Assembly: GCA_963783375.1 (NCBI GenBank)
Contig: CAWANH010000028.1
Span: 1,024,001-1,088,000, forward strand
Source: Candidatus Eiseniibacteriota bacterium
Lineage (GTDB): Bacteria; Eisenbacteria; RBG-16-71-46; JABDJR01
Length of the DNA stretch: 64,000 nucleotides
Direction: 5' to 3'
The position numbers and the translations under genes are program-made. The notes under the pieces are model-generated. The model was given only the letters and a program-made list of their open reading frames with translations. It did no database searches and was not told where the DNA came from. Positions 23,259-52,733 of the stretch are shown here, one piece after another; positions within the stretch are counted from its first letter, which is position 1, and each line of letters starts with the position of its first letter.

Positions 23259-23303
23259 AAGGAAGAAAGCCGCGCCGGCGGGAGGAGTAGGTGCCGGCGC
23301 GGC
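23259..23303 (-). terminator. Intrinsic terminator on the minus strand
   Basis: GCCGCGCCGGC-13 nt loop-GCCGGCGCGGC followed by TTTCTTCCTT. Confidence 0.75.
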
Positions 23304-23515
23304 AGGGAGCCACCCGCCCGACCCGCCGAACGGCGGGCCGCCGGGCGCTCGTCCGGGAACCGGGCCCCCCGCGGGGAAACCGGTGGCGGGTGCCGGCCCG
23401 CCCCGGGCGTTGAGGGCGCCCCGGGTCGAAGCCGGTGTCCGCCGTCGCGCCGCCGCCGCGATCTCGAGAGGTTGGAACGACGCTCGAGCGAGCGCGGTGG
23501 CGCGACCCGTACACC
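23259..23515 (-). ncRNA. Candidate sigma54-dependent structured sRNA (~255 nt)
   Basis: Lies between a -24/-12 motif and a terminator; stems GTCGCGCC/GGCGCGAC and CACCCGCC/GGCGGGTG (4-way junction), G-U pairs on the minus strand; no credible ORF. Confidence 0.5.
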
Positions 23516-23525
23516 CCCGACCCAA

Positions 23526-23571
23526 TGCACGCCGCGTGCCATGGGCCGATTCGGCGATTTTCAACGGGTTA
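23526..23571 (-). promoter_or_regulatory. Sigma54 promoter with adjacent IHF-like site
   Basis: TGGCACG-CGGC-GTGCA (GG-N10-GC) at 23541-23526; TTTCAA-CGGG-TTA at 23559-23571. Confidence 0.6.
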
Positions 23572-23678
23572 CGGGGGGACGGGTGGACCCGGGTGTGCTT
23601 CCCCCGTCACAGGTGTGTCGGCGGTCCCGCCGGTTCGAGCGCCGGTCCGCGCTCGAATCCCCGCGCGCCCTGGTCCGG

Positions 23679-24728
23679 CTACCGCGAGGGCTTGGGCTCC
23701 ACCCGCTGGGGCATGGGCCCGAACTCGTCCATGGCCGGCCCCGGCTCGGGGTAGCCCTCGGGATTGCGGCGAATGAAGTCGTAGGCCGAGGTGATGATCT
23801 CGTCGAGGTCGCGTCTGGGGCTCCAGCCCAGCACCTGCTTGGCCTTGGCGTTGGACGCCACCAGGACCGCGGGGTCGCCCGCCCGCCGTCCGGACCGCTT
23901 GTGGGGCACGGGCAACCCGGTCACCCGCTCCACCGCCTCGAGGATCTCGATCACCGAGGTTCCGGTTTCGGTGCCGAGGTTCAGGGCCACGCTCTCCCCG
24001 TCCCCCTCCAGGTACTGAAGCCCCCGAAGGTGGGCGTCGGCCAGATCCTGCACGTGGATGTAGTCGCGGATGCAGGAGCCGTCCCGGGTGGGATAGTCGG
24101 TGCCGAAGACCTCCATCTCCCGGTCCTCCAGGATCGCCGCCCGCACCGCCAGCGGGATGAGGTGGGTCTCGGGGCGGTGGTCCTCTCCCAATCCGGCCGC
24201 GGTCTCCGCGCCCGCCGCGTTGAAGTAGCGGAAGATCACGTAGCGCAGCCCGTAGGCGGCGGCGGCGTCGGCCAGCATCTGCTCGCCCACGAACTTGGAC
24301 CAGCCGTAGGGGTTGATGGGCTGGAGGGGGTGGGTCTCGGTGATCGGGATCTCGCGAGGCTCCCCGTACATGGCCGCGGTGGAGGAGAAGATGAAACGGG
24401 GAACGCCGACTTCGAGCGCCGCTTCCAGGAGCGCGGCGGTGCCGGTCACGTTGTTGTGGTAGTACTTGATCGGGTTCTCGACCGACTCCTTCACCGAGCA
24501 GAACGCGGCGAAGTGGAGGATGGCCGACGGCCGGTGGCGGCGGAGGATCGCGCGCACCACGCCCTTGTCGGTGATGTCCTCCTCGATGAGTTCGGCGTCG
24601 CGCACCGCGGCCCGGTGCCCCTCGCTCAGGTTGTCGAGGATCACGGTTCTGTAGCCCGCCCGGCGAAGCCCCTGTACCATGTGGCTACCGATGTAGCCGG
24701 CCCCGCCGGTGACGAGGACGGAGTTCAT
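23679..24728 (-). CDS. galE: UDP-glucose 4-epimerase
   Basis: VTGGAGYIGSH, HFAA..VKES, FSSTAA, YGWSK, RYFNAAG, PETHLIP, RDYIHV. Confidence 0.95.
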   Translation of the reverse strand: MNSVLVTGGAGYIGSHMVQGLRRAGYRTVILDNLSEGHRAAVRDAELIEEDITDKGVVRAILRRHRPSAILHFAAFCSVKESVENPIKYYHNNVTGTAALLEAALEVGVPRFIFSSTAAMYGEPREIPITETHPLQPINPYGWSKFVGEQMLADAAAAYGLRYVIFRYFNAAGAETAAGLGEDHRPETHLIPLAVRAAILEDREMEVFGTDYPTRDGSCIRDYIHVQDLADAHLRGLQYLEGDGESVALNLGTETGTSVIEILEAVERVTGLPVPHKRSGRRAGDPAVLVASNAKAKQVLGWSPRRDLDEIITSAYDFIRRNPEGYPEPGPAMDEFGPMPQRVEPKPSR

Positions 24729-24840
24729 ACGTTCATCCCTTTGTGTGATGTCGAGTCGCCCGGGGGGGGCCGCGGCCCGGGGCACGGGCTAATCTTACTA
24801 GGTTTTCGGCGGTTTTTGTGGATGTCTTGAGGGGAGAGCT

Positions 24841-25284
24841 GTGGCCGGTCCATTCTACAAACAGGCATCGGGGCTTCGTTTCGAGTGCACCCGGTGCGGG
24901 AAGTGCTGCTCGAAGCCGGGCCCGGTCTACTTCTCCGGCGGCGACCTGGAGCGGGCGGCGCGCTTCCTGGATCTCTCCCCGGCCCGGTTCCGGCGCCGCT
25001 ACCATGTCGTCACCATCGACGGGGTTCCGGCCATCGACCCCGGCGACCGTGCCCCCTGCACCTTTCTCGACCCCGAGACCGGCTGCACGATCTACGAGGG
25101 CCGCCCCACCCAGTGCCGCACCTTCCCCTTCTGGCCGGAGGTCGTCCGGCGGCGCCGGTCCTGGGAGAAGGCGGCGGTGGACTGCGAAGGAATCGGCCGC
25201 GGGCCCCGCCACTCTCCGGAGGAGATCGAGCAGGCGCTCGTCGAGTGCGAGGTGATGCGGGTGCCCGAAGGGGAACCGTGGTAG
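24841..25284 (+). CDS. YkgJ-family Cys-cluster (Zn/Fe-S) protein
   Basis: CTRCGKCC...CTFL...CTIYEGRPTQCRTFPFW. Confidence 0.88.
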   Translation: MAGPFYKQASGLRFECTRCGKCCSKPGPVYFSGGDLERAARFLDLSPARFRRRYHVVTIDGVPAIDPGDRAPCTFLDPETGCTIYEGRPTQCRTFPFWPEVVRRRRSWEKAAVDCEGIGRGPRHSPEEIEQALVECEVMRVPEGEPW

Positions 25285-27365
25285 GGGGGGCGCGCGCCGA
25301 GGCCTCGGAGGGCGGACACCGGAGCGCGGAGAAGCGCCCGCCCCGGAAGGCCGCGCCGGCCCCCCCGCTCCCCCTGGCCGAGGTGGCGGTGCCGGTGCCG
25401 CTCCGTCGCGTGTTCACCTACCGCGTCCCCGAGGAATTTCGCGCGGAGCTCCGCGAGGGTTCCCTGGTCAAGGTCCCCTTCGGCCGGCGGACGGTGGCGG
25501 GGTTCGTGGTGGGGTTTCGGGCGACGACCGACCTCAAGGTCGTGAAGGACATCGCCTCGGTCGAGGACGCCGAGCTGTCGTTGCCGGAAGACGTGCTCTC
25601 CCTCTGCCGGTGGGTGGCCGACTACTACCTGGCCCCGGTGGGGGAGGTGCTTCGCGCCGCGCTTCCCGCCGGGCTGGGAAAGAAGAGCCCAGGCGAGGTG
25701 CCGCACGCCGCGGGGAGCCTTCCCACCATTCGTCTGGCCGAGGAGCAAGCGGCCGCGCTGACCGCGATCAACGACGCCCAGCGCGGCGGGAAGTACGCGG
25801 CGTTCCTCCTCCACGGCGTGACGGGGAGCGGAAAGACCGAGGTGTATCTCCGGGCCGCGGCCGACGCGGTGGCGGCGGGGGGGAAGGCGTTGATCCTGAT
25901 CCCCGAGATCGCCCTCTCCCCCCAGATGGTGCGCCGGGTGGAGGCGCGGTTCGGAAACCGGGTCGCCCTCTGGCACAGCGCGCTCACCCCCGCCCGCCGC
26001 CGGGCGGTGTGGGCGCGCACCCGGCGGGGGGAGATCGACGTCCTGGTCGGCGCGCGATCGGCGATCTTCGCCCCGATCCCCGATCTCCGGCTGATCGTGG
26101 TGGACGAGGAGCACGAGGGGGCCTACAAGCAGGCGGAGTCCCCGCGCTACCATGCCCGGGACGTGGCCCTGGTGCGCGCGCGCGAGGCCAAGGCGGTGGT
26201 GGTGCTGGGCTCGGCCACGCCGAGCCTCGAGACCTACGCCAACGTGAAGCGGGGAAAGCTCCGCATGCTGTCGCTTCCGCACCGGGTGGAGCGGCGGCCT
26301 CGGGCCAAGGTGGACCTGGTTCCGCTCCCCGCGCTCCGCCCCGCCCCCGGGGAGCGCCCGCTCTCACCGATATTCGGGGATCCGCTCCATCGCGCGATCA
26401 CCGAGACCTTGCAGCGCGGAGAGCAGACGATCCTCTTCCTGAACCGCCGCGGGCACTCCACCGTGGTCCAGTGCGAATCGTGCCGCGAGGTTCTCACCTG
26501 CGACCAGTGCGACATCGTTCTGACCTGGCACGCCGACACCGACCGCATGGTCTGCCATTACTGCGGGAGGAAGCGTCCTCCGCCGGGGACCTGTCCGGCC
26601 TGCGGCGGCCCGGTCACGATCTACAAGGGGGTGGGGACCCAGCGGGTGGAGCGGGAGCTGCACCGGCTTTACGGGGGGATCCGGCTCCTCCGCCTGGACA
26701 CCGATTCCACCCGGAAGCGCGGCGCGCTGGAGGAGGCCCTGGAGACGTTCCGGAGCGGGGAGGCCGACATGCTCCTCGGCACCCAGATGGTGGCCAAGGG
26801 GCTCGACTTCCCCAACGTCACCCTGGTCGGGGTGGTGAACGCCGATCTGCAACTGGCCCTCCCCGACTTCCGGAGCGCCGAACGCACCTTCCAGCTCCTC
26901 ACCCAGGTGGCCGGGCGTTCGGGCCGGGGGGAGCGCCCCGGACGGGTGCTCTTCCAGACCAACAAGCCCGATCACTACGCGCTCCGCGCCGCGGCGGACC
27001 AGGACTACGAGACGTTCTACCGCGCCGAGACCGCGGAGCGGCGCGACCCCCCCTATCCGCCCTTCCGGAAGCTGGTGAACCTGCTCTTCGACGGCAAGGA
27101 CCTAGACCGGGTCACCGCCGAAGCCGACGCGGCGGCCGAACTACTCACCGCTCGGATCGCCGCCGAAGATCTTCGGGTCGAGCTCATGGGTCCCGCGCCC
27201 CAACCCTTCTCCCGGCTCAAGGGAAAGCACCGCTGGCACCTCACCCTCCGCGGAAGCGATCATCACGCGCTCCGGAGACTCGCCGACCTCGCGCTCACCC
27301 GTCACGAGGCGGCGCCGGGCCCGGTCCGCATCACCGTGGACGTGGATCCGGTATCGCTCCTGTAG
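25278..27365 (+). CDS. priA: Primosomal protein N'
   Basis: GVTGSGKTEVY, LIPEIAL, DEEH, YHARD, LGSATPSLE, FLNRRG, Cys-rich region, GTQMVAKG; start approximate. Confidence 0.95.
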   Translation: MVGGARAEASEGGHRSAEKRPPRKAAPAPPLPLAEVAVPVPLRRVFTYRVPEEFRAELREGSLVKVPFGRRTVAGFVVGFRATTDLKVVKDIASVEDAELSLPEDVLSLCRWVADYYLAPVGEVLRAALPAGLGKKSPGEVPHAAGSLPTIRLAEEQAAALTAINDAQRGGKYAAFLLHGVTGSGKTEVYLRAAADAVAAGGKALILIPEIALSPQMVRRVEARFGNRVALWHSALTPARRRAVWARTRRGEIDVLVGARSAIFAPIPDLRLIVVDEEHEGAYKQAESPRYHARDVALVRAREAKAVVVLGSATPSLETYANVKRGKLRMLSLPHRVERRPRAKVDLVPLPALRPAPGERPLSPIFGDPLHRAITETLQRGEQTILFLNRRGHSTVVQCESCREVLTCDQCDIVLTWHADTDRMVCHYCGRKRPPPGTCPACGGPVTIYKGVGTQRVERELHRLYGGIRLLRLDTDSTRKRGALEEALETFRSGEADMLLGTQMVAKGLDFPNVTLVGVVNADLQLALPDFRSAERTFQLLTQVAGRSGRGERPGRVLFQTNKPDHYALRAAADQDYETFYRAETAERRDPPYPPFRKLVNLLFDGKDLDRVTAEADAAAELLTARIAAEDLRVELMGPAPQPFSRLKGKHRWHLTLRGSDHHALRRLADLALTRHEAAPGPVRITVDVDPVSLL

Positions 27366-27391
27366 ACGCCGTCCGGGGGTCCCGCTCCCGC

Positions 27392-27407
27392 GGGTACGGG
27401 ACTTGCA
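27392..27407 (+). promoter_or_regulatory. Possible sigma54 promoter
   Basis: GGGTACG-GGAC-TTGCA, GG-N10-GC spacing. Confidence 0.45.
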
Positions 27408-27417
27408 ACTGCGCACT

Positions 27418-27540
27418 GGGTGACTCGGCCTCCACGCAGTTCGGCCGGCCCGGTGGGTTCTCCGCGGTGCTCGCGGGAAGTCTGAAGGGTTCTAGCGACA
27501 CCGCTCAGGTCAACCACGAACCGCCGGGCCGGCTCTTTGT
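27418..27540 (+). ncRNA. Candidate small structured RNA (~120 nt)
   Basis: Long hairpin GCCGGCCCGG(27444-53)/CCGGGCCGGC(27524-33) with inner GCGGTG/CACCGC, G-U on the plus strand, followed by TCTTTGT. Confidence 0.4.
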
Positions 27541-27701
27541 GAGGGCCGCTTCGGGGGAGCCGATCCCCGGAACCGAAAGCCGGTCCGTCCGCCGCTGGGT
27601 GATTTCCGGCGCCCGCGCGCTTGCGAAATCGCCGAGGCCCCGGTGCAGGTTGCAAGGCTCTCCGCCTTGACACCCCGCCACCCGGGCAGAAGAATCCGGA
27701 C

Positions 27702-28940
27702 ATGACCACTCCCCGCGCGCCCGGCCGGCGCCGAGCTTCGCACCACCAGAACCTGCTCCGAGGCCTCGGCGCGGCGGCCCTCGCCCTGGCCGTGTGGCTC
27801 ACGGTGAGCGGGGCGGGATGCGCCAGCTCGGGGAGCGGATCCGGCCCCGGGATCGACCGGGACCACCCCGATCAGTCCGAAGCCCGGTACCGCCAGGCCC
27901 TGGCCCGAAATCCCAACGACGCCGGAGCCCACCTGGGGCTGGCCCGCGCCCTGGCCGAGGAGGGGCGGATCGACGAGGCCGCGGTGCAGTTCCAGCGGGC
28001 GGAGACCCTGGATGCCCGGCTGGCCGGCGACGTGGCGGACTCGCGTCGCCACTACGCCCGCGCCTACCTCGATGAGGCGGAGAGCGATCTCGACCAGGGG
28101 CGCGAGGAGGAGGCGGGGATCGCGCTCCATCGCGCCCGGAGCCTGGCCCCCGAGGATCCCCGGGTGCCCGCGCTGGAAGGGCGACTCTCGGAGAAACAGA
28201 ACGACGTGGAGTCCGCGCTCACCGCCTACCGCCAAGCCTGGGCCGGCGGCCTCCACGACGACGCCACCCGGGACGGGCTGGTGAACGCCCTCACCGCGAC
28301 CGCCCAGGGGGAGTACGATCACGGGGACTTCCCGGGCGCATGGAAGCTTCTCCAGGAAGTCCTCCGGGTGGACCCTCACGCCAACGTCCAGGACCTCGAG
28401 GGAACGGTGGCCTACGCCTGGGCCCAGAACAGCCCCGAGGGCGAGCGGGCGGGGCATCTGGACGATGCCGCCCGCGCCTTTCGCGCCTACCTGGACCGGA
28501 ACCCGAACGATCGTGACGCGAAGTTCAACCTGGCCACGGTATACCTCGCCTCCCAGCGGTATCGCGAGGCGGCCGATCTCTACCAGGACCTGATCGCCCA
28601 CGACCGGACCGACGGCGACCTCTATCTGGCCTTGGCCCGGGTTCACGGGTTCCTGGGGCAGAGCGGGCTGTCCCAGACCGAGGAGGCGGTGGGGCGGTCG
28701 CTCCGGGCCGGCCAGCCGGTGGACGACCCGGCGGGATGGGCCCGGCGCTCCGCCGAGCGATTCCCGAATTCCGATCTCGCGGCGGTCTTCTACGATCTCT
28801 TGACCCCGGAAGCGGTCTATACCTACACCCTTCCCGGCGGGGGCCTGGTCGAGGTCTGGTTCTACTGGAAGAAGGGGGTGGCGGAGGCGTTCAGGGACGG
28901 GGGGCGGATCGGGCCCGCGCTCCAGCTCCCGCGCCCCTGA
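27702..28940 (+). CDS. TPR-repeat lipoprotein
   Basis: Lipobox GAGC; repeated helical TPR-like units (A..YRQAL..NP.DA.AHL.LA); TTGACA at 27667 upstream. Confidence 0.8.
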   Translation: MTTPRAPGRRRASHHQNLLRGLGAAALALAVWLTVSGAGCASSGSGSGPGIDRDHPDQSEARYRQALARNPNDAGAHLGLARALAEEGRIDEAAVQFQRAETLDARLAGDVADSRRHYARAYLDEAESDLDQGREEEAGIALHRARSLAPEDPRVPALEGRLSEKQNDVESALTAYRQAWAGGLHDDATRDGLVNALTATAQGEYDHGDFPGAWKLLQEVLRVDPHANVQDLEGTVAYAWAQNSPEGERAGHLDDAARAFRAYLDRNPNDRDAKFNLATVYLASQRYREAADLYQDLIAHDRTDGDLYLALARVHGFLGQSGLSQTEEAVGRSLRAGQPVDDPAGWARRSAERFPNSDLAAVFYDLLTPEAVYTYTLPGGGLVEVWFYWKKGVAEAFRDGGRIGPALQLPRP

Positions 28941-29022
28941 GGGCCGGCTCCGAGGCCCGGAACCGGTCCCTGGAGGTCCCCGGGGGACTTCGGAGACGAC
29001 TTCCCCGGCCATCCGACCGCCG

Positions 29023-29052
29023 TTGACACGCGTTTTCCCGGGGAGCTAGAAT
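29023..29052 (+). promoter_or_regulatory. Sigma70-type promoter of rho
   Basis: TTGACA-18 nt-TAGAAT. Confidence 0.7.
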
Positions 29053-29231
29053 CGAAGGGTTCCGGCAGTGATGCCATTCTCCCGGTAACCCTTCTGCCCG
29101 GCCCAAGCCCCGGATCACTCAAGCCGGGATCCATTTCCAACCCGACCCGACCCGAGCCGACTTCCTCAGTCCGAGCGCGAAAGATCCCAAGTCTCGCGTG
29201 GACGACAGGCCACCGGTCCTCCGATCAAGGA

Positions 29232-30512
29232 GTGTCTCCCGTGTCAACATCAGAAGTGAGCCCCATGGACCTGGCTCAGATGAAGTCCAAGACGGTTCAT
29301 GAGCTTCAGGAGATCGCCCAGGAGCTGAACCTCGGGTCGACTTCGAACATGCGGAAGCAGGAGCTGATCTTCCGCATCCTCGAGGCGCAAACGGAGAAGA
29401 GCGGGCTGATCTTTTCGGAGGGCGTGCTGGAAATATTGCCCGAGGGGTACGGTTTTCTCCGGTCCACCGACTACAGCTACCTCCCGGGTCCCGACGACAT
29501 CTATGTCTCGCCGTCCCAGATCAAGCGATTCGACCTGCAGACCGGGGACACGGTGTCCGGGCAGGTGCGCCCCCCCAAGGAGGGCGAGCGTTACTTCGCG
29601 CTTCTCCGCGTCGAGGCGGTGAACGGCGAGGCGCCCGAAGTGGCCAAGGTCAAGGTCCACTTCGACAACCTCACCCCGCTCTATCCGGACAAGCGGGTGG
29701 AGATGGAGCACGATCCGGACGACATGTGCACGCGGATCATGGATCTGTTGACCCCGATCGGATTCGGCCAGCGTGGTCTGATCGTCTCGCCCCCCCGGGC
29801 GGGGAAAACGGTGCTCCTGCAGCGGATCGCCAACGCCATCACCGCCAACCATCCCGACGCCACCCTGATCGTGCTCCTCATCGACGAGCGCCCCGAAGAA
29901 GTGACGGACATGTCGCGATCGGTGAAGGGGGAGGTGGTGTCCTCCACCTTCGACGAGCCGGCGGAGCGTCACGTCCAGGTGGCGGACATGGTGATCGAGA
30001 AGGCGAAACGGCTGGTCGAGCACCACAAGGACGTGGTGATCCTCCTGGACTCCATCACGCGACTGGCCCGGGCCCACAACACGGTGATTCCGCACTCGGG
30101 AAAGATCCTTTCCGGCGGCGTGGACGCCAACGCGTTGCAGCGGCCCAAGCGCTTCTTCGGGGCGGCCCGAAACGTGGAGGAGGGAGGGTCGCTCACCATC
30201 ATCGCCACCGCCCTGGTGGAGACCGGGAGCCGGATGGACGAGGTCATTTTCGAGGAGTTCAAGGGTACCGGGAACATGGAACTGATCCTGGACCGGAAGA
30301 TCGCCGACCGGCGGATCTTCCCGGCCATCGACATCAACCGGAGCGGGACGCGGAAGGAAGAACTGCTCCTGGACCAGAGCATCCTCAACAAGGTCTGGAT
30401 CCTCCGCAAATTCCTGAACGAGCAGACCTCGGTCGAGGCCATCGAGTTCCTCATCAACCAGATGGGCAAGACCAAGAACAACAAGGCTTTCCTGGAGATG
30501 ATGAACGCCTGA
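29232..30512 (+). CDS. rho: Transcription termination factor Rho
   Basis: [44 protein letters not shown]; start may be ATG 29265. Confidence 0.98.
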
Positions 30513-30752
30513 GCCGGGGCGATGCCGGCCTAAACGACTGCCCGGCAATAAGTTGATAAATCGGGAGGCGCGGGCGGCCGGGCCGGGGGAGCGGTCCGCT
30601 TGGAAACGCCCCCCTTATTTGATATGCTCTTTCGCTCCGCCTTCATCGGCGGAACCGACCTTTGATCGAACGGATTCTCCCGACGGACCCGCCCGAGGGA
30701 TGATCCACGTCCGGGCCGCCGGGACCGTCCGACCGGCCCATCGAGGAATCCC

Positions 30753-31109
30753 ATGAAGACCGACATTCATCCCGAGTACAAGGAAGTGACCGTGGCCTGC
30801 GTGTGCGGGAACACCTTCAAGACCCGCTCCACCATGGGCAAGGATTTCCACGTGGAAATCTGCTCGGCCTGCCACCCGTTCTTTACCGGGAAGCAGAAGC
30901 TGGTGGATACCGCGGGCCGGGTGGACCGCTTCCGCCGGAAGTACGGCACCGACTACAACAAGGCGGCCAAGGCCAAGGCGGAGGCCCCGGCCCCGGAGGC
31001 CGCCAAGGCTCCGGTCGCGGAGGCCGCCAAGGCCCCGGTCGCGGAGGAGACGAAGCCCCAGGCGGCCGAGCCCGAGACGCCCGCCGCTCAGGACAACGCC
31101 GCTTCCTAG
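30753..31109 (+). CDS. rpmE: 50S ribosomal protein L31 (Zn-binding type) with Ala/Pro/Glu tail
   Basis: [30 protein letters not shown]. Confidence 0.97.
30996..31043 (+). repeat. Two tandem 24-bp repeats (EAAKAPVA) in the rpmE tail
   Basis: GAGGCCGCCAAGGC[T/C]CCGGTCGCG x2. Confidence 0.85.
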
Positions 31110-31225
31110 CTCGACATCGACCGGCCCTCGCCGACCGGCGCCGGCCGGGCGAGGGCCTTGTCGTATCCTGATCACCGTATCCTGAACATCACGTCCGAAG
31201 CGTCCTCTCCGAAACCGGGTGAGCC

Positions 31226-32191: not shown

Positions 32192-32245
32192 CCCCGCCTC
32201 GCGCCGACGGCCCGGGCCCCTGGGGTCCGGCGCCGAAACAACATC

Positions 32246-34247: not shown

Positions 34248-34280
34248 GTCGAAAATGAATCCGGCAAGGAGACCGATCGT

Positions 34281-36035: not shown

Positions 36036-36125
36036 CCGTCCCTCGAGGAAACGGCCCCGGTCGCGCCGACGGGCGGCCGGGTGACGCGGCGCCCCCTGCG
36101 CCGCGACCGCCCGGGAGGAACCGTC

Positions 36126-37394
<1,269 letters not shown>

Positions 37395-37395
37395 C

Positions 37396-39324: not shown

Positions 39325-39380
39325 AAGACTGGAAGAACGCCGGGTACGGAATACCCCCCGGCGGGGCAAGGTAGCAAACA

Positions 39381-39977: not shown

Positions 39978-41161
39978 GCAAAGAGGATCCAGCAGCCATG
40001 AGCACGTCGATACACCCCTCGTCCGACGATCTGAGCGCGTACTTCGATAACGAGCTATCCGACACCGAAGCCGCAGCCACCGCCACCCACCTCACCGATT
40101 GTCCCGAATGCCAATCCCACATCGAGGCTTTCGCCGTCCTGTCCGAACTCGGCCCTCGTGTGGAGGAGATGCTCCCGGGCGAGGCGTACTGGTCTGATCT
40201 TCCCGATCGCGTCCTGGCCCGGCTGGCTATCGAGGCGGGCCGTGCCGGCGCGCCGGCGGCCGCGGCGAAGGGCTCCTCGTTTTGGCGGAGCCTCTGGAAT
40301 CCCCAGGGCGGCTGGAGATGGGCGGTAGGCTCGACGGCCACCGCCGTTCTGCTGGTGGGCGCTTGGTTCACCATCCACCAGGCCCAGAATCCCGCCGCTC
40401 CGTTGGGGAGTACGATCGCCGAGAACCGCGCCGCTCCCGTCGAGGTTCCCCCGCCCGGCGCGGGGTTGGCGGGCACCCCGCTCATGACCGGGGTCACCGG
40501 GCCGGTGGAGTCGGCTCAGTTCGTGGACAACACCGTGGCCGACGCTGCGCCCGGCATGAGCCCCGACGCCTTTTCCCGGCAGGTCATCACGACCCTGGGC
40601 GGGCGGGAGAACCTGGGCACGAGCCTCAACATCGCCTCGGGGCAGGCGGTCACCGGGGACGGGGCGGTCTCTCCGATCGCCGATCAGGTGGCGTGGACGC
40701 TTCCCCCCCTCGGACCTCAGGCCCGTCTGGAGACCCAGGGGCTGGTGAGCTGCGGCCCCGGCGAGAGCCCCCTGGAGAAGGCGTTCGTCTGCGCGGCCAA
40801 GGCCGACGAGATGGGGCAGAGCGCGCTGGCCCGGCAGGGGTACCAGGTGGTTCAGCGGTTCTCCGATCAGAGCCGCCCCCTCTACTGGGAGGCGGATTAT
40901 CGCCTGACCTATCACAAGTGGCGGCAGCAGCTGGCCAGCGTACCCGCCGGCCCGCAACGCGCCCAGATCCTGGACAACATGCACCGGCTCGCCGACCAGG
41001 CCTACACGAGCTGGAAGAAGACCGGAAACCTTCCGGACTGCCAGCAGGCCTGGTGCATGAACCGGGCGTTCTACCGGCTGGCCGCCGAGGTCTCCGGGGT
41101 GAATTCGGTTTCCGAACAGACCGCGCGGATGAGCGCGCTCGTGAGCTGCATGAACCAGTAG
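39974..41161 (+). CDS. Zinc-finger (ZAS) transmembrane anti-sigma factor
   Basis: LSAYFDNEL...HLTDCPEC (HxxxCxxC), one TM, extracytoplasmic C-terminus; overlaps the sigma stop. Confidence 0.85.
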   Translation: MSKEDPAAMSTSIHPSSDDLSAYFDNELSDTEAAATATHLTDCPECQSHIEAFAVLSELGPRVEEMLPGEAYWSDLPDRVLARLAIEAGRAGAPAAAAKGSSFWRSLWNPQGGWRWAVGSTATAVLLVGAWFTIHQAQNPAAPLGSTIAENRAAPVEVPPPGAGLAGTPLMTGVTGPVESAQFVDNTVADAAPGMSPDAFSRQVITTLGGRENLGTSLNIASGQAVTGDGAVSPIADQVAWTLPPLGPQARLETQGLVSCGPGESPLEKAFVCAAKADEMGQSALARQGYQVVQRFSDQSRPLYWEADYRLTYHKWRQQLASVPAGPQRAQILDNMHRLADQAYTSWKKTGNLPDCQQAWCMNRAFYRLAAEVSGVNSVSEQTARMSALVSCMNQ

Positions 41162-41221
41162 ATGTTTCGAACGGTTTTCATGGAGACAATCAGCAGGATG
41201 ATCCCGTAAGCAATTGATCAG

Positions 41222-41640
41222 TTAGTCGAGGTCAAATCGAACCACGAGCCCGGGTGATGAGCCCGGGCTCGCGTGCTGTTTGGGGAACACCGATACCGGT
41301 GCTGCCGATTCTGAATTCGGCGATGGGCTTGCGCGTTCCACGTCCATGCCGGCGACCCCGCCGAGCGGTTCCGCGTAACGCCGGCCGCGTTCGGCGTAGG
41401 CCGCGCGGAGGTCGTCGTCCCGGAGCAGAAGCTCGATTGCGTCCCGGAGCGCCCCGGGATCCCCCGCCGGTACGATCAGGGCCTCGTCGGTCAGGACGTC
41501 GAACACGCGGTCGCCCGGACCGACGTTGGTGTCCAGGAACGCGGTCTCCGCCTCGTCGTGCACCCCGGCGCAATAGAGGTGCGCGTCCAGGATGCGACGG
41601 CGCCCAGCGGCCGTGGGCCAGGGTGATCCAGTGTCCGAAG
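41222..41640 (-). pseudogene. Glycosyltransferase (GT4-like) C-terminal remnant
   Basis: ALIVPAGDPGALRDAIELLLRDDDLRAAYAERGRRYA resembles a GT-B C-terminus; no intact N-terminus; bounds approximate. Confidence 0.5.
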
Positions 41641-41831
41641 CGCATCGGCATGCCCGGGGCGGACAATCCCCGGGGGCGCATGCCTACAAGCGGAGACCGA
41701 CTCGGGGCCGGTCCGCGAGAGCGACCCGGCGTCCGGACCCATTCGTGCGGTTGTCCAGGTTGCCCATCGACGGCCTCGATTCCAGGCTGTGCGTTCCGGG
41801 TCGGGAGCCCACGCTCCGGGGACCGACCCTC

Positions 41832-43382
41832 TCAGAGCGGGATGTTGCCGTGCTTCTTGGCCGGAAGGCTCTGCCGCTTGTTCCGGAGCGAGTGGAGGGC
41901 GCGGATGAGCTTCGGCCGGGTCTCCCGCGGCTCGATCACGTCGTCCAGGTAGCCCAGCTCGGCGGCCACGTAGGGGTTGGCGAACTTGTCGTTGTACTCG
42001 GCCACCAGGCGCTCCCGCTCGGCCTCGGGATCGGCCGCCCCCGCCAGTTCCCGCCGGTAGAGGATGTTCACCGCGCCCTCGGCTCCCATCACCGCCAGTT
42101 CCGCCGAGGGCCAGGCCACGTTGTAATCACCGCGGATGTGCTTGGAGCTCATGACGTCGTAGGCCCCCCCGTAGGCCTTCCGCAGCACCACGGTGAGCTT
42201 GGGCACGGTGGCCTCGCAGTAGGCGTAGAGGAGCTTGGCCCCGTTGGAGATGATCCCGCCCCACTCCTGGGCGGTTCCGGGAAGGAATCCCGGAACGTCC
42301 TCGAAGGTGACGAGCGGAATGTTGAAGCAGTCGCAGAACCGGACGAACCGCGCCGCCTTCCGGGAGGAGTTGATGTCCAGCACCCCGGCCAGGAACCGGG
42401 GCTGGTTGGCCACGATGCCCACCGGGTGGCCGTCCAGCCGGGCGAACCCCACCACGATGTTCCGGGCGTAGTGTTCGTGGACCTCGAGGAACCCGCCGTC
42501 GTCCACCACGGCGTGGATCACGTCCTTGACGTCGTAGGGCTTGTTCGACTCCTCGGGGATCAGGCCCTGGAGCGCCTCGTCCATGCGGTTGGGGTCGTCG
42601 GAGGGAGGCCGGTAGGGCGGGTCCTCCACGTTGTTCTGGGGAACATAGCCCAACAGCTCCCGGATCACCCGGAGGGTGTCCCGGTCGTCCTCGGTGGCGA
42701 AGTGCGCCACCCCGCTCTTGGCGTTGTGGGCGCTCGCCCCGCCCAGCTCCTCGTGGGTCACCTCCTCCATGGTCACGCTCTTGATCACGTCGGGACCGGT
42801 CACGAACATCTGGCCGGTGCCCTTGGCCATGATGATGAAGTCGGTGATGGCCGGGGAGTACACCGCCCCCCCCGCGCAGGGGCCCATGACCGCGGAGATC
42901 TGGGGCACCACCCCGCTGGCCAGGGTGTTCCGGAGGAAGATGTCGGCGTAGCCCCCCAGGCTCGCCACCCCCTCCTGGATCCGGGCCCCCCCCGAGTCGT
43001 TGAGCCCGATCACCGGGGCCCCGTTCTGCACCGCGAGGTCCATCAGGTTGCAGATCTTCCGGGCATTGGCCGCGGAGAGGGTGCCCCCGAACACCGTGAA
43101 ATCCTGGGCGAAGACGTAGACCAGGCGTCCGTCGATCCGCCCGAACCCGGCCACCACCCCGTCCCCGGTGATCTTTCGCTTCTCCATCCCGAAGTCGGTG
43201 CAGTTGTGGGTGACGAAGCCTCCCAGCTCCTGGAAGGTGCCGGGGTCGAGGAGGAGCTCCATCCGCTCCCGGGCGGTGAGCTTCCCCCGGCCGTGCAGCT
43301 TCTCGATGCGCTCGGACCCCCCGCCCAGTGCGGCCTCGGCCCGGCGCCGCTGGAGCTCCTCGATACGGTTCTTGACGCTCAT
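41832..43382 (-). CDS. pccB: Acyl-CoA carboxylase carboxyltransferase (beta) subunit
   Basis: [59 protein letters not shown]. Confidence 0.93.
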
Positions 43383-43505
43383 GAGACGACTCCCCCGATG
43401 CCCGCAATTCCGGGCCGGCCACGAATCTGCTTGTGCCAAAGGCAATTACGGGAATCCTAGTCCGGACGGGCCCCTCGGTCAATCCTCGGCTCCCCTCCGG
43501 CGCGC

Positions 43506-43534
43506 TTGACTGGCCTTTGCGGGGTCTCTAGCAT
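43506..43534 (+). promoter_or_regulatory. Sigma70-type promoter of thiolase operon
   Basis: TTGACT-17 nt-TAGCAT. Confidence 0.6.
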
Positions 43535-43609
43535 GGACCGGTTGAATTCCACGGAGCTTGTTTCTTCCCGACCGATGTTCGGCCCGCGGGCCGGAGGCGA
43601 TACGCACTC

Positions 43610-44794
43610 ATGAAGACCCGGGTGGCCGTCCTGTCCGCCAAACGCACCCCGATCGGGAGATACCTCGGCTCCTTCACCGGAACCCCCGCCGTGGATCTCG
43701 GGGTGGCCGCGGCCCGGGCCGCCCTGGCCGCCTCGGGGATCGAACCCGCCGACGTCGACGAGACCTTCTTCGGCCACGGCCGCCAGGCCGGTTGCGGCCC
43801 CAACCCGGGACGGCAGGTGAGCGTGCGGGCCGGGCTCCCCCATGAGGTTCCCGCCCTGACCGTGAACCAGGCCTGCGGATCGGCCCTCAAGTCCCTGTTC
43901 ATGGCCCGCGAGCGGATCCTTCTCGGCGAGGCCTCGGTGGTGCTGGCCGGCGGGATGGAGAACATGACCCGGGTCCCCCACATGCTTCCCGACCTCCGCC
44001 TGGGGTACAAGATGGGGGACCGGCCCCTGGTGGACGGCATGTACAAGGACGGGTTCAACTGTCCCCTGGCCGACCAGGTGATGGGGGAGACCGCGGAGAC
44101 CCTGGCCGATCAGTACCGGATTCCCCGGGAGGAGCAGGACGCCTACGCCGCCCGGAGCCAGAACCGGGCGGAGATGGCGCGCAAGGAAGGCCGGTTCCGG
44201 GGGGAAATCGCCCCGGTTACCGTGACCGGCCGGAAGGGTCCCACCGAGGTCTCGGAGGACGAGCACCCCCGCGACGGGGTGACCCCGGCCTCCCTGGCCA
44301 GGCTCCCCGCGGTGTTCCGCAAGGACGGAACCGTGACCGCGGGGAACTCCAGCGGCATCACCGACGGGGCGGCCGCGCTGGTGGTGGCCTCGGAAGCGGT
44401 GGTGCGGGAGCGGGGGCTCACCCCCCTGGCCTGGCTGGAGGATGGGGTGACCTCCGGGGTGGATCCCCGGGTCATGGGGATCGGGCCGGTTCCCGCGGTC
44501 CGGAAGCTGGAGGAGCGCACCGGCCGCTCCCTGGCCGGGTACGACCTGGTGGAACTCAACGAGGCCTTTGCCGCCCAGGTGCTCGCGGTGGACCGCGACC
44601 TGGGCTTCGACCACGACAAGCTGAACGTCAACGGCGGTGCGATCGCCCTGGGGCACCCGATCGGAGCCACCGGGGCGCGTATCGTGGTGACCCTGATTCA
44701 CGAGATGATCCGCAGGGGCGCCCGGACCGGACTCGCCACTTTGTGCGTATCCGGCGGGCTGGGTCTGGCGGCGTCCTTCACGCGGGAGGATTGA
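43610..44794 (+). CDS. Acetyl-CoA C-acyltransferase (thiolase)
   Basis: [39 protein letters not shown]. Confidence 0.95.
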
Positions 44795-44795
44795 T

Positions 44796-45536
44796 ATGGA
44801 ACTCAAGGAGAAGGTGGCCATCGTTTCGGGGGGAAGCGGGGACCTGGGTAGCGCCATCTGCATGCGCCTGGCCAAGGCCGGGGCGAAGGTCGCCCTGACC
44901 TACCGGGCGGACCAGAAAGAGGCGACCGAGGTCGTGGACGCGATCGAGGCCATCTCCGGCACCGCGGTGGCCGAGGCGGTGGATATCACCGACTACGACA
45001 ACGTCTCCGAGTTCGTGAAGCGGATCGTGGCCAAGTGGGGCCGGCTGGACATCCTGGTGAACGCGGTGGGGGCCAAGGACCCGGCCACCCTGTTCGAGAT
45101 GACTCCCGAGCAGTTCGACCATGTACTCGACGTCAACCTCAGGGGGTACTTCAACTTCATCCGGGCGGCGTCCACGGTCTTCCGGGAGCAGAACGGCGGG
45201 AAGGTGGTGAACGTGGCTTCCCTCCAGGCCACCCAGGGCTCCTCGGCCCTGAACGACGTGGCGGCCAAGATGGGGGTGATCGGTCTCAGCCTGGCCGCGG
45301 CCCGGGAGCTGGGGCCCTACGACGTGAACGTCAACGCGGTGGCCCCGGGCATGGTGGAGACCGCCGCGCTCAAGGGCACCCCGGCGGAAGACGTCGAGAA
45401 AGCCATATCCCGCAGCGTCTTAGGGCGCCTGGCCAAGCCGGAGGAGGTGGCCGACGTGGTCATTTTCCTCTGCTCGGCCAAGGCCCGTCACATCACCGGC
45501 GAGGTCATCCGGGTGGATGGGGGCCAGCACCTCTAG
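44796..45536 (+). CDS. FabG-like short-chain dehydrogenase/reductase, YxxxK appears as DxxxK
   Basis: SGGSGDLG, DILVNA, NVAS, NDVAAK, NAVAPG, ITGEVIRVDGG. Confidence 0.88.
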   Translation: MELKEKVAIVSGGSGDLGSAICMRLAKAGAKVALTYRADQKEATEVVDAIEAISGTAVAEAVDITDYDNVSEFVKRIVAKWGRLDILVNAVGAKDPATLFEMTPEQFDHVLDVNLRGYFNFIRAASTVFREQNGGKVVNVASLQATQGSSALNDVAAKMGVIGLSLAAARELGPYDVNVNAVAPGMVETAALKGTPAEDVEKAISRSVLGRLAKPEEVADVVIFLCSAKARHITGEVIRVDGGQHL

Positions 45537-45830
45537 CCGTCCCTGAACCGCGGATCTTGGGGCGGAGGGACCGGCCGACCCCCCACATCCGGCCCCTTCG
45601 CAGGGCGCTCCCCCTAACTCCCTTGTGCGTTTTCTCTTGTCAGAGTCACGGGATATCGTGTACTCGTTTTCCGGTGCAGGCTTCCCGCGTACCCCGGAGA
45701 GTCCCTTTCCGGGTCACGGGAGAGCTAGGACAGATGCCTGATCGGGAGGGGTATCGTACCTCTCCTGTGAGGACCAGCCGCGCCGTCCCTGCGTACGATG
45801 CGGCACTTACGATCAAGGAGGGTAGCTCAT

Positions 45831-46353
45831 ATGAAGAAGATCCTCTTCTTCACGATCGCTTTGTGCTCTGGTGGCCGGACCGCCATGGCTGGCCACGACA
45901 TGACCGGCCGGCTCGGCCTCGGCTTCACTACTCCGACTTCCCGGTCGGCGTGCGCTACTGGGTCTGCCCGAAGGTCGGGGTGGACGGTCGGTATCGGGTA
46001 CAGACCCGAGAACGACGGCACGTGACCAAGACTTATGCATCGACGTCGGCGTGCCGATCGTGCTCATGGACGATGCGGACCGGGTGAACTTCCTGGTTCG
46101 CCCCGGGCTCAACTGTAGTCGACCATGGAACCGCGGCGCAGGGTACGAGCTCGGCGACGAACCTGATGACCGGCAGCCCTGGAGTTCGAGGTCAATCGTC
46201 ACCGACGACTTCACGGTGAGCGCGGCCCACGGGTTCGCGTTCATGAGCGCCAGACTCGGGCGCCCCCGGGTTCCAAGCTCGACCTCGGACTACGGCTTCT
46301 TCGGTAACAACTGGACCAACTTCGGGTTCCACTACTACCTGAAGAAGAAGTAA
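45831..46353 (+). pseudogene. Small outer-membrane beta-barrel gene with multiple frameshifts (real pseudogene or read errors)
   Basis: AAGGAGG RBS, MKKILFF signal peptide, GRLGLGF / PVGVRYW / NFGFHYYL segments in different frames. Confidence 0.65.
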
Positions 46354-46388
46354 GCGACCCCAAGCCGATGGTTTACGGATCCAATGGA

Positions 46389-46425
46389 GGCCCCGCCGCG
46401 CCCGCGGCGGGGCCGGGTCCTTTTT
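46389..46425 (+). terminator. Probable intrinsic terminator
   Basis: GGCCCCGCCGC-GCCC-GCGGCGGGGCC then GGGTCCTTTTT. Confidence 0.55.
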
Positions 46426-46438
46426 CCCGGAATCTGTC

Positions 46439-46976
46439 GTGCTCTGCCCTGGCCATCCTCCTGCTGGCCCTGGCCGCGGTCGTCCCGGTCCGGCCGGTCG
46501 ACGGCGGGCGAAGACCCCGCGCCTACCGGGCTTCGGCCGCAACGTCTCCCGCCGCCTCGGCCTGGGGATGATCTCCCGCGAAGCCCCGATCGGGCGTGCG
46601 CTACCTCTTCGACCCCCGCCTGGGGATGGAACTGGGAGCGGGCTTCAGCCACCGGAAGGAGCAGGGAACGACGGTGATCATGGACGGCGGGCTGCTTCTG
46701 GCCCTGGCCCCCGGCGACCGGCTGAACTTCTACCTACGTCCGGGGGTCCGGTTCCGCAGCGTGGATGCGTCGGACGAAGGGGCCACCACCACGGTGTTCT
46801 TCACCGCCGCGCTCGCCGTCGAGGTGTTCGTGACCCGGGATTTCTCGATCACCGCCGATCAGAGCCTGGAGATGGGTTTCGTGAGCCCCCCCAGCGGTCC
46901 GGATCACACCGACTTCCAGACCCAGGGCGTCCCCTGGACCCGGCTCGGGTTCTTCTACTACCTGGGCGCTCCCTGA
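46439..46976 (+). pseudogene. Paralogous small OM beta-barrel gene, 5' part frameshifted
   Basis: RLGLG..., GVRYLF, DRLNFYLRPG, VTRDFSI, WTRLGFFYYL mirror the upstream copy; start uncertain. Confidence 0.6.
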
Positions 46977-46996
46977 CCCGTCGGGTGATCCCCCCC

Positions 46997-47692
46997 TCAA
47001 TCCCCCCGCTTCACCGTATTCGGAGGTTCCATTCGACCCAGGGTGCGGAGGTTGTGCGCCACCCGGCGGGCCAGGAGCCCGGTCATCCCCAGGGCTGCCG
47101 CGATCCCCACGATGTCGAACACGGTCATCCCGATCCCGAAGAGATCGAAGGGGAGCCCCCGGGCGTAGAGGACGGTGAGGTTCAGGGCGATGAGGAGGAT
47201 CCGAACCTCGGTGGGTCCCACCCCCCCGTAGCCGTAGCGGAACTCGCCGAAGATATAGGTTTCGAGGTAGACGTTGATGGAGAGCACCAGGTAGGCGGTC
47301 ACGATGGCCAGCGAGGTGCCGAGGAGCATGAAGGGCGAGAGCCCCATCCCGAGCCCGATCGCGAAGGTGGAGTAGGCGTCGGAGATGTGGTCCAGGTAGA
47401 AGCCGTACCGGGGACGCTCGATGTGGCGCACCCGGGCCAAGGTTCCGTCCAGGCTGTCCGCGAACCAGTGGATCACGATGGCCGCGTTGGCCACCCAGAG
47501 CCAGCTCGGGCTTCGGTTGGAGAGAATGTAGGCGACGCCGATCACCGAGGCCGCGACCAGCCCGAGCACGGTGAGATGATCCGGAAGCACCGGGGCGGGA
47601 AGACGGGCGGCCAGCCGGGGGAGAGCCCACTTCTCGAACCGGGTCAACACGAACTGCGCGGTGCGACGGTGTTTGACGTCTTCATCGGCCAT
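46997..47692 (-). CDS. CDP-alcohol phosphatidyltransferase family protein
   Basis: PDHLT, DSLDGTLAR...GFYLDHISD signature. Confidence 0.9.
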   Translation of the reverse strand: MADEDVKHRRTAQFVLTRFEKWALPRLAARLPAPVLPDHLTVLGLVAASVIGVAYILSNRSPSWLWVANAAIVIHWFADSLDGTLARVRHIERPRYGFYLDHISDAYSTFAIGLGMGLSPFMLLGTSLAIVTAYLVLSINVYLETYIFGEFRYGYGGVGPTEVRILLIALNLTVLYARGLPFDLFGIGMTVFDIVGIAAALGMTGLLARRVAHNLRTLGRMEPPNTVKRGD

Positions 47693-47759
47693 TCTGGCCG
47701 GATAAGACCGGATCCCGCCGGGAAATGCAACCCGCAATCGGGGCGGAGGCGTCCCGCCT

Positions 47760-48386
47760 TCACCGCAGGCTGAACACGAACGGGATCAGCACCCGGGTCC
47801 TGACCGGCCGATGGCGCTGGAGGCCCGGGGTGAAGAGCCATTGTCTCGCCGCGTCCAGCGCCGCCCGCTCCAGGGCGGGGATGGTGTCGGAGCTCTTGAT
47901 CCGCGCGGCCAGGACCCGGCCGGTCGTGCCGACCACCACCTCGACGGTGACCGTTCCCTCGGCCCGGGCCTCGCGGGCGATGTCCGGGTAGCCCGGCTGG
48001 ACCCGCTTCAGGATGGCCGGCTCCCGGTCCAGGGCCTCGAACACCTGATTGTCGCCCGGGGGGGGCGCGGCCACCGGGTTGGAGAAGATGTCCGGGTTGA
48101 AGATGGGGATGGTGTCGCGGGGGTCGGCGCTATCGGTGACGTCGATCTCGGAGGGGAGGAGGGGACGCTTCACATCCTCCGGTGGCTCCTGGATCTTGAT
48201 CGGGTCGGGGACCTCAATCAGCTTGAACGGCTCGTTCTCCGGAAGCCGGTAGGGGGTGATCCGCATCGCCGGCACGGCCAGGAAGAGAGCCACGTGCAGG
48301 ACGACGCCGACGGCGAGGGTGGTCTCGAGGGTCCGGGGGTAGCGGGACTTGAAGGCGAACTGGGCGGTCAGGGCGCGATCGGTCAT
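47760..48386 (-). CDS. tonB: Energy transducer TonB
   Basis: N-terminal TM with His, Pro-rich linker, PGYPDIAR..EGTV.V, AALDAARQW.FTPG; GGAGGA RBS. Confidence 0.88.
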   Translation of the reverse strand: MTDRALTAQFAFKSRYPRTLETTLAVGVVLHVALFLAVPAMRITPYRLPENEPFKLIEVPDPIKIQEPPEDVKRPLLPSEIDVTDSADPRDTIPIFNPDIFSNPVAAPPPGDNQVFEALDREPAILKRVQPGYPDIAREARAEGTVTVEVVVGTTGRVLAARIKSSDTIPALERAALDAARQWLFTPGLQRHRPVRTRVLIPFVFSLR

Positions 48387-48449
48387 GGCAACGGTCCTCC
48401 CCACTGGGTGGTCGGTCGCTCACAACCCCGGCGCCGCAGAATGAGCCTC

Positions 48450-48482
48450 AAAAATTTGGGGCACCCGGCTTTCGGGTGCCCC
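48450..48482 (-). terminator. Intrinsic terminator on the minus strand
   Basis: GGGGCACCCG-AAAGC-CGGGTGCCCC-AAATTTTT. Confidence 0.75.
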
Positions 48483-48892
48483 TACGGCGACACAAGAGCG
48501 GGCTTGTATACTCTTGCGACGCGCGATCCCCCCCTCAGGGATCAGGATGGTTCCCTGCGTCCGCATGTTCGTCCGAGAACGAACCAGACCTTGATGGGAG
48601 GCATCCCCAGGCCGAGCGGGCGCTTGCTTTGCAATACCCTACGGACGCTTCGTGGTCGCAGGGAACCAGTCGTTGTGGCCGTTGAACCCGCCCCGGGGCG
48701 GGGCCTCGACCTGAATTCCGGTTGCCGTGATGCCGATCCACCCCCGCCTCGGGTTGAGGGCCGCGTGGGTGGCTCGCCGGTGGCTGCCTCTTCACCGAAC
48801 GAGCCACCCTGCCGGGGTTGGAGAGTAGCATTCGCGGCTTTTTGGTGCTTCGAAGCTGCATCCCTCTTCCGAGAGAGTCTCGCTGCTTCGAT
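48450..48892 (-). ncRNA. Candidate large multi-domain structured ncRNA (~440 nt)
   Basis: Many nested stems, a GGAA tetraloop, G-U pairs favouring the minus strand, sigma54 motif upstream, terminator downstream, no ORF with genome-like codon bias. Confidence 0.62.
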
Positions 48893-48902
48893 CACCTGTA
48901 TA

Positions 48903-48919
48903 CGCAATCCGTGTGCCAG
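48903..48919 (-). promoter_or_regulatory. Sigma54 promoter
   Basis: CTGGCAC-ACGGA-TTGCG, near-consensus -24/-12; AT-rich tract 48945-48970 and palindrome ATGGGT-N7-ACCCAT (49028-49046) upstream. Confidence 0.72.
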
Positions 48920-50124: not shown

Positions 50125-50141
50125 TTGGCACGTTGCCTGCT
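50125..50141 (+). promoter_or_regulatory. Sigma54 promoter of the hsp20-dnaK operon
   Basis: TTGGCACG-TTGC-CTGCT, GG-N10-GC; AT-rich IHF-like tract just upstream. Confidence 0.65.

Positions 50142-50815: not shown

Positions 50816-52733
<1,918 letters not shown>

Follow-up and report, generated by a model that had tools for sequence, protein, structure and literature searches.

The intergenic DNA of a 64,000-nucleotide (nt) stretch from the genome of a Candidatus Eiseniibacteriota bacterium (the window; G000:C28:1024001-1088000) contains three conserved elements, RNAs A, B and C, which we consider, with moderate confidence, to be three unrelated RNA genes transcribed by sigma-54 polymerase under activators of their own, RNA C serving as a protein decoy or scaffold and RNA A as a repressor of translation. 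The source genome, G000 (4.73 Mb, 69% GC, 97% complete), belongs to an order of 10 genomes in two families, and its genes were called with a self-trained caller (3771 genes, 85% coding) that possibly missed some. A Rho tree grouped the window with Krumholzibacteriota entries (support 86), a weak placement in a tree devoid of any Eisenbacteria-labelled entry.

RNA C and its internal elements are arranged as follows:
48903..48919, minus strand: sigma-54-type promoter of RNA C, score 17.1, in register in 9/9 genomes and 16/16 metagenome homologs
48448..48892, minus strand: RNA C, multi-domain structured RNA of 445 nt (aligned homologs 377-444 nt)
48814..48817, minus strand: C-run loop (inside UCCAACCCC), predicted to form a pseudoknot with the complementary G-run loop (48534-48531)
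48785..48789, minus strand: invariant loop AGGCA, predicted to form a kissing loop with its complement, the invariant UGCCU (48603-48599)
48449..48482, minus strand: intrinsic terminator, hairpin and U-tract, compensatory change in 4/10 pairs

RNA C folds better than shuffled sequences (z=-5.03), and its BLAST similarity in relatives (72-96% identity) is bounded by promoter and terminator. It is present in 9/10 genomes of the order; a covariance model built on its 3' portion recovered it from 8/9 genomes other than G000, missing one that is 75% complete, and from 0/141 other genomes of the class. Metagenomes yielded 56 pattern matches, 16 confirmed by the model and 40 unconfirmed, and viral contigs yielded none. 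An RNA C-like match in a draw from the phylum (E 0.014) was rejected, as the motifs are absent and it resembles coding DNA. In 25/25 copies the sigma-54 motif puts the +1 position at the conserved 5' end, the 5' ends of all three RNAs being predicted from motif spacing, and every copy possesses the terminator with the exception of one that is truncated by its contig.

The alignment of RNA C comprises 21 sequences (9 genomic and 12 of the 16 metagenomic ones, three near-duplicates and one truncated copy being excluded). In the resulting 88-pair structure 93.8% of cells are paired and 31 pairs have changed on both sides; this pairing was reached by none of 500 shuffles, and slid controls pair at 41-51%. 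Pairing between AGGCA and UGCCU is possible in 21/21 sequences, neither loop varying, and the C-run and the G-run can pair in every sequence with letters there, again without variation. Since the paired loops never vary, both pseudoknots remain predictions. A sequence in which C-run and G-run are both shorter (L236) was not counted as covariation, other runs being shortened in it too. The lengths of insertions and deletions modulo 3 (156/79/32 for 1/2/0) and a substitution rate that is flat by position show that no reading frame is kept between homologs.

Across the window, Rfam returned nothing for RNAs A, B and C at cut-off and nothing at loose E-values. Several identities were tried and rejected for RNA C: BjrC68 (28.7 versus 39 bits at the 3' end, the match resting on the terminator), RNase P and signal recognition particle (SRP) RNA, both of which are located elsewhere, and glmS or twister ribozymes, which its loops recall, with no Rfam match and a different order of elements. 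The size, the invariant loop-loop complements and the long invariant single-stranded runs would equally suit an RNA-only structural or catalytic molecule rather than a protein decoy, be it a compact or multimeric RNA of the raiA/OLE/GOLLD type or a ribozyme. Kissing loops reportedly occur in such large ornate bacterial RNAs, and RNA C resembles the raiA motif, OLE, GOLLD and ROOL in being large and highly structured with predicted loop-loop contacts. It differs from them in that Rfam yielded neither a sequence nor a model match, whether to those families or to a ribozyme, in its confinement to one order and in its sigma-54 promoter with an enhancer of its own; its tertiary pairs, moreover, are without covariation. 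We consider this alternative unlikely.

A second alternative, somewhat less improbable though still not one we would favor, is a multi-seed antisense RNA comparable to RNAIII, the C-rich loops of which would act on ribosome-binding sites, perhaps aided by KhpB. Consistent with it, the segments UCCAACCCC and UGCCUCCC are invariant, GGAGG occurs near the start of 1017 of the 3771 called genes, KhpB/Jag is encoded in 4/5 genomes and similar C-rich loops are present in RNA A and in unit D, a further RNA described below. On the other hand, invariant G-rich loops exactly complement the C-rich ones inside RNA C itself, whole hairpins are conserved beyond any seeds, and no specific target was found. 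A protein-binding fold is the reading that we retain for RNA C. The chances that it works through shape rather than antisense pairing appear about even; this view is taken because its invariant loops complement each other and because Hfq and RapZ were not found (0/5 genomes each). CsrA was detected in 1/5 genomes, all five of which hold RNA C, the CsrA-bearing one belonging to the other family. Qrr, CrcZ, GlmY and CsrB work with Hfq, RapZ or CsrA as partners. Given that Hfq and RapZ were not found and CsrA is rare, RNA C is favored as a protein-binding fold, RNA A as an antisense RNA directed at Shine-Dalgarno (SD) sequences and RNA B as a protein-binding rod.

Contigs assembled from RNA libraries of four studies match RNA C and span 48619-48873. 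One match extends over 155 nt without mismatch (48619-48773), another, of 169 nt, has a single mismatch and a single gap, and a third is a 109-nt piece. In three of the four RNA runs the flanking tonB and methyltransferase genes are uncovered, and uncovered parts prove nothing.

Two enhancer-like elements lie upstream of the RNA C promoter:
49027..49046, minus strand: proximal palindrome (GGRTA-N4-GTAYCCA type) at about -143, found at -129 to -145 in 22/22 homologs examined
49094..49113, minus strand: distal palindrome at about -210, found at -195 to -214 in 15/22 homologs

The exact palindrome pattern has 13 matches in five genomes versus 0 for the reversed pattern, and among the conserved sigma-54-led RNAs the enhancer pair is found at RNA C alone. 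No IHF-like match within 2 mismatches is present near the RNA C promoter in G000. The palindrome also occurs upstream of an operon encoding a 1001-amino-acid TPR-AAA+-HTH activator (G000:C29:1318967-1321972, operon region to 1322700) that is conserved in 10/10 genomes; it was found there in 10/10 genomes (scores 16.2-25.6) as compared to 4/119 random gene upstream regions, and at 0/2 paralog loci. Because the same palindrome precedes the activator's own operon in every genome, as an autoregulatory site would, the TPR-type protein is, judged from sequence, probably the autoregulated activator of RNA C. It would bind the palindrome pair, drive transcription of RNA C and control its own operon. 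That sigma-54 really fires the RNA C promoter we regard as very probable. A sigma-54 motif together with the tandem RNA C palindrome is also situated ahead of a gene for an exported protein of about 190 residues (G000:C28:1011140-1011860, minus strand, L349), which has 4 homologs and to which no family was assigned.

RNA A is located between the convergent apbE and galE genes:
23559..23571, plus strand: IHF-like site ahead of the promoter, 1 mismatch to the IHF consensus, conserved block in 5 homologs
23526..23542, minus strand: sigma-54-type promoter of RNA A, score 16.7, same register in 5/5 syntenic homologs (scores 14.0-18.1)
23259..23515, minus strand: RNA A, roughly 256 nt (142-256 nt in homologs, which vary in the middle)
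23471..23482, minus strand: conserved loop motif CGUCGUUCCAA, in 5/5 homologs (elsewhere in the RNA in G006)
23259..23303, minus strand: terminator hairpin (-25.4 kcal/mol) with an anti-SD loop (CUCCUCCC) and U-tract, loop core kept in 5/5

RNA A was found in G000, G001, G002, G003 and G006, a match in G004 being dropped for its different genomic context, and folds better than shuffles (z=-2.85). Sigma-54 is highly likely to fire its promoter, if with slightly less certainty than that of RNA C. Terminator function needs no fixed loop sequence. The conserved terminator loop of RNA A is complementary to SD sequences; in G000 it reads CUACUCCUCCC, and there is one such loop only. Anti-SD hairpin loops characterize the cuckoo or alpha-r14 family including NfeR1, which acts independently of Hfq (PMC4615179, PMC10746234). 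RNA A resembles these RNAs in its CUCCUCCC anti-SD hairpin loop and variable stems (PMC4615179, PMC10746234). It fails the cuckoo definition, as it has a single terminator loop instead of 2-4 adjacent CCUCCUCCC hairpins (PMC4615179), and differs from NfeR1, the promoter of which is reported to be without a sigma-54 signature (PMC4615179, PMC10746234). By this analogy, RNA A may be an Hfq-independent anti-SD small RNA that represses translation at ribosome-binding sites, an assignment to which we give a slight edge.

RNA B occupies the gap between priA and a TPR gene:
27391..27407, plus strand: RNA B motif of sigma-54 type, weak (score 8.7), its GG-N10-GC kept in register in 5/6 genomes (scores 4.5-14.2)
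27418..27540, plus strand: RNA B, rod of about 125 nt with a long closing stem and the invariant AAGGGUUC (27485-27492)
27667..27695, plus strand: sigma-70-type promoter serving the TPR gene downstream, TTGACA kept in 5/5 loci reaching that far

BLAST detects RNA B in the nearest genome only; on inspection, the rod and AAGGGUUC are present in 6/6 priA-TPR gaps. With a better fold than shuffles (z=-3.09) and compensatory change in 11/30 pairs among five sequences, RNA B is a real structure. It is probably not the leader of the TPR gene, since the latter has a separate sigma-70-type promoter. Neither an upstream enhancer nor an IHF site was found at RNA B, and it matches neither 6S, SRP RNA nor any Rfam family. 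The odds that sigma-54 fires its promoter are just better than even, and the proposal that it binds a protein via the invariant apical loop is tentative.

All three elements could instead act in cis, RNA C as a leader or attenuator of tonB, RNA A as the 3' end or terminator region of galE and RNA B as the terminator region of priA. In keeping with this, RNA C is followed by a co-directional tonB in G000, G001, G002, G005, G006 and three metagenome loci, galE and priA remain the neighbors of RNAs A and B, respectively, and the RNA B promoter is weak. The gene after RNA C, however, varies; besides tonB it may be a CDP-alcohol transferase gene, one in convergent orientation or still another. RNA C is not a tonB leader because these neighbors change: its full sequence is kept in G003, G004 and G008, in which there is no tonB or a convergent gene comes next. 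Moreover, an alternative antiterminator fold is not in evidence for RNA C, and a conserved promoter, an IHF-like site and loop motifs belong to RNA A itself. For the set as a whole a cis-acting nature is thus highly improbable; for RNA B by itself, as the 3' end of the priA transcript, it is a serious minority option. Independent RNA genes remain our preferred reading for A and C, and with less assurance for B.

An earlier note on this DNA had proposed the three units from GG-N10-GC motifs pointing into supposedly open reading frame (ORF)-free, stem-rich and terminated sequence. The three motifs are present at 23542-23526 (minus), 27391-27407 (plus) and 48919-48903 (minus), strong for A (16.7) and C (17.1) and weak for B (8.7), and a fourth at 50125 (plus) precedes hsp20. 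The stem-rich character holds for A, B and C alike. No gene is called in the three units, which long GC-rich shadow ORFs nevertheless overlap, the frame not being kept for RNA C. A hairpin with U-tract is clear for C and A, and poor in its U-tract for B, which misses the terminator listing. The alleged agreement of G-U polarity with promoter direction is found for B (8 versus 1 G-U pairs) and, to a small extent, for C (15 versus 12), not for A (3 versus 9, the antisense strand folding better). The word GCCCUCAAC, said to be shared by the two longer RNAs, is a chance match: it is kept in 2/21 RNA C homologs and lost from RNA A even in the nearest genome, and of 2000 intergenic 445-mers drawn at random, 83% have at least one 9-mer in common with RNA A. 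The three tests of refutation named in the same note left it standing: the genome has an rpoN gene, intergenic sigma-54 sites lie far above shuffles, and RNA-library contigs match RNA C. Altogether, its observation is partly confirmed and its interpretation partly supported.

G000 is well equipped for sigma-54-dependent transcription, with 25 strong matches to sigma-54 activator domains and a GAFTGA-type loop in 24 called proteins; the nearest gene for a GAFTGA-type activator lies more than 200 kb from RNAs A, B and C on their contig. With at most one mismatch to the sigma-54 consensus, 26 sites were found in 687 kb of intergenic DNA versus 1.15 expected from 20 shuffles, and altering the spacer by one left 1 and 0 sites. 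A matrix score of at least 14 is reached by 48 sites as opposed to 8, 3 and 4 in controls. Of these 48 strong motifs, 27 have an IHF-like site no more than 60 nt away, as compared to 9.6% of random windows. While 29/48 are situated within 200 nt of a same-strand gene, 19/48 have more room, and a terminator-like hairpin follows 14/30 strong motifs with room versus 62/322 controls. That the motifs arose by chance in GC-rich, hairpin-prone intergenic DNA draws on the 68% GC, on false matches that occur at the score of RNA B and on the similar-looking unit K, which is present in 1/10 genomes only. The promoter register fixed in 25/25 copies of RNA C, the covariation and the conserved enhancer pair speak against it; chance is already refuted for RNA C and is next to negligible as a general explanation.

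The fourth motif of the window is an ordinary promoter:
50125..50141, plus strand: sigma-54-type motif of hsp20-dnaK, score 18.9, 133 nt upstream of the called hsp20 start

It lies, together with an IHF-like site, ahead of an hsp20-dnaK-DUF1844-grpE cluster (50125-54015) that is divergent from RNA C; a homolog of the methyltransferase between the two was not detected in G005 and G006. A 126-residue protein encoded at 46596-46976 (plus strand) has no Pfam or NCBIfam match, and atlas features suggest a small outer-membrane beta-barrel. Elsewhere in G000, sigma-54-like matches at C28:636478+/636545- and C3:72558- fall within repeated palindromes flanking cassette-like DNA and are probably repeats rather than promoters; a motif at C28:1746408 (minus strand, L185) precedes a possible 65-codon Cys-rich small ORF absent from the gene calls; and at C28:433050-433260 (plus strand, L178:1635-1727) a sigma-54-led, terminated 30-codon ORF carries three conserved Trp-Glu-Trp repeats (G000, G003, G004) and might encode a modified-peptide precursor.

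When the 48 downstream regions of G000 were compared with 125 motif-led stretches from three relatives, which were sampled at exact-pattern sites alone so that a miss there does not signify absence, about seven conserved, terminated, non-coding sigma-54-led units emerged (A, B, C, D, E, H and N), the latter four being:
G000:C28:813740-814081 (L176), minus strand: unit D, about 312 nt, two CCUCC tracts, strong match in 5/9 other genomes
G000:C17:21800-22019 (L177), minus strand: unit E, second 6S RNA, sigma-54 motif and IHF-like site, 5/9 other genomes
G000:C29:450696-450900 (L180), plus strand: unit H, sigma-54-led with terminator, 5/9 other genomes
G000:C17:22947-23165 (L177), plus strand: unit N, about 190 nt, structured, 3 relatives, weaker sigma-54 motif, back to back with unit E

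Unit D matches neither Rfam nor 6S; the short words CUCUCCA, GUUCCCUG and CCCUGAG are common to it and RNA C in the same order. Unit E scores 49.6 bits against RF00013 in a 231-nt search (gathering cut-off 46.4) and is a second copy in addition to the canonical 6S RNA (C29:533224-533404, 80 bits); filtered 6S searches of the genome had missed it. It serves as a positive control because the screen recovers a 6S RNA above the Rfam cut-off. The sigma-54 motif stands ahead of unit E in 6/6 genomes and ahead of the best-scoring 6S RNA per genome at 0/30 class loci. One of three copies of unit H reaches 28.1 bits against RF00013, a weak match confined to the closing stem, and its interior is much shorter than that of 6S; unit H is possibly a truncated third 6S paralog. 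RNAs A, B and C match neither RF00013 nor a profile of 30 class 6S RNAs.

Units G, I and J (G000:C28:1474132+, 845371+ and 509467-) are conserved hairpins right after sigma-54 motifs that may be leaders. Two of them directly adjoin activator genes, and each hides a G-rich, SD-like tract. The 5' loop of RNA A could pair with the long hairpin of unit G (-14.6 kcal/mol, significance not established). Unit F was rejected as an RNA, being a small ORF, as was unit K (C28:472807+) as a conserved RNA; about ten further motif-led regions were repeats, likely genes absent from the calls, or cases without a clear class. The conserved units have no 10-mer in common that contains three or more A/T; they are therefore separate outputs and neither a single family nor a single regulon. 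The 'extensive, undescribed' layer of sigma-54-controlled RNAs envisaged in the earlier note is accordingly real but modest and made up of unrelated RNAs: four further conserved units were added, yet about seven units stand against roughly 45 promoters, unit E belongs to a known family, and an activator-rich genome with four sigma-54 non-coding RNAs is in print (PMC4641369).

CrcZ/CrcY (CbrB-RpoN), GlmY (GlrR-RpoN) and Qrr1-5 (LuxO-RpoN) combine a sigma-54 promoter, an enhancer and an IHF site with a stand-alone terminated RNA. The RNAs described here share this layout, with the enhancer upstream and the terminator an intrinsic one, and differ in the absence of an Rfam match and in that Hfq and RapZ were not found in the five genomes; RNA C, in addition, has no repeated unpaired protein-binding motif. 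RNA C is also unlike the CsrB/RsmZ sponges: CsrA is encoded in only one of the five genomes holding RNA C. The closest precedent is Desulfovibrio vulgaris Hildenborough, where four sigma-54- and enhancer-binding protein-dependent non-coding RNAs are described among 36 regulons (PMC4641369). Both sets comprise several RNAs, each with its own enhancer-binding protein, here a predicted one, in an activator-rich genome; sequences and lineage differ, and there are about seven RNAs here (PMC4641369). Two of the D. vulgaris RNAs are reported there to lie directly downstream of activator genes (PMC4641369), whereas A, B and C have none within 200 kb. As to 6S RNA, Escherichia coli ssrS has been judged unlikely to be solely NtrC-dependent (PMC4066584), and no report of a sigma-54-driven second 6S RNA was found in the literature searched. 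Nor was a paper on RNAs A, B or C found; term searches of the main texts of PMC12316311 and bioRxiv 10.64898/2026.10.21.760802 gave no hit, and the supplements of the preprint might list them. Sigma-54 non-coding RNAs are already known; what is new is the families, the link between enhancer and activator of RNA C, how many such RNAs one genome holds without Hfq, and a second 6S RNA led by a sigma-54 motif.

Several points weigh against our reading of A, B and C. Kinship among the RNA C sequences inflates the shuffle test; its loop-loop pairs, being invariant, have zero covariation support, and complements of 5 and 4 base pairs among GC-rich loops can be chance. The C-rich loops of RNA C could also serve as antisense seeds. 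The RNA-library contigs give no strand, ends or level, DNA carry-over is possible and the runs were picked using the window sequence, which is why they are a hint of transcription and not proof. For RNA B, the sigma-54 motif is absent in G001 and its matrix score of 8.7 falls below the range where control matches are rare. The promoter matrix was trained on the very sites that it scored, rendering that test partly circular, and in the whole genomes of three relatives a loose motif was no more frequent than its reversed control (43 versus 46, 42 versus 88 and 47 versus 87). Finally, no protein partner or mRNA target emerged: a cross-pairing scan of the RNAs gave generic C-rich/G-rich matches only, and start-region seed counts pointed to no specific mRNA.

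In the mechanism that we propose, each RNA would be switched on by its own enhancer-binding protein together with sigma-54 polymerase. RNA C would then act as a folded protein-binding decoy or scaffold, the terminator loop of RNA A would pair with ribosome-binding sites and repress translation, and RNA B would be a small rod binding a protein by its apical loop. Together with units D, E, H and N these RNAs would carry separate sigma-54 signals to the post-transcriptional level.

The analysis adds at least three uncatalogued RNA families, or five counting D and N, from an uncultured lineage and indicates that a screen for sigma-54 motifs and enhancers detects non-coding RNAs missed by Rfam scans. 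RNA C offers a complete predicted circuit of activator, enhancer pair, promoter, structured RNA and terminator that can be rebuilt in vitro. The sigma-54-led second 6S RNA is a possible sigma-54-to-sigma-70 switch and, if true, would constitute a direct RNA link between two sigma-factor classes. Taken further, a speculation to which we attach rather low probability is that a family without Hfq, CsrA and RapZ routes its sigma-54 signals via a bank of structured RNAs, in which one or two extra 6S-type RNAs would act as polymerase decoys shutting off sigma-70 transcription and RNA C would found a compact, double-pseudoknotted class of 400-450 nt in circuit with an autoregulated TPR-type activator.

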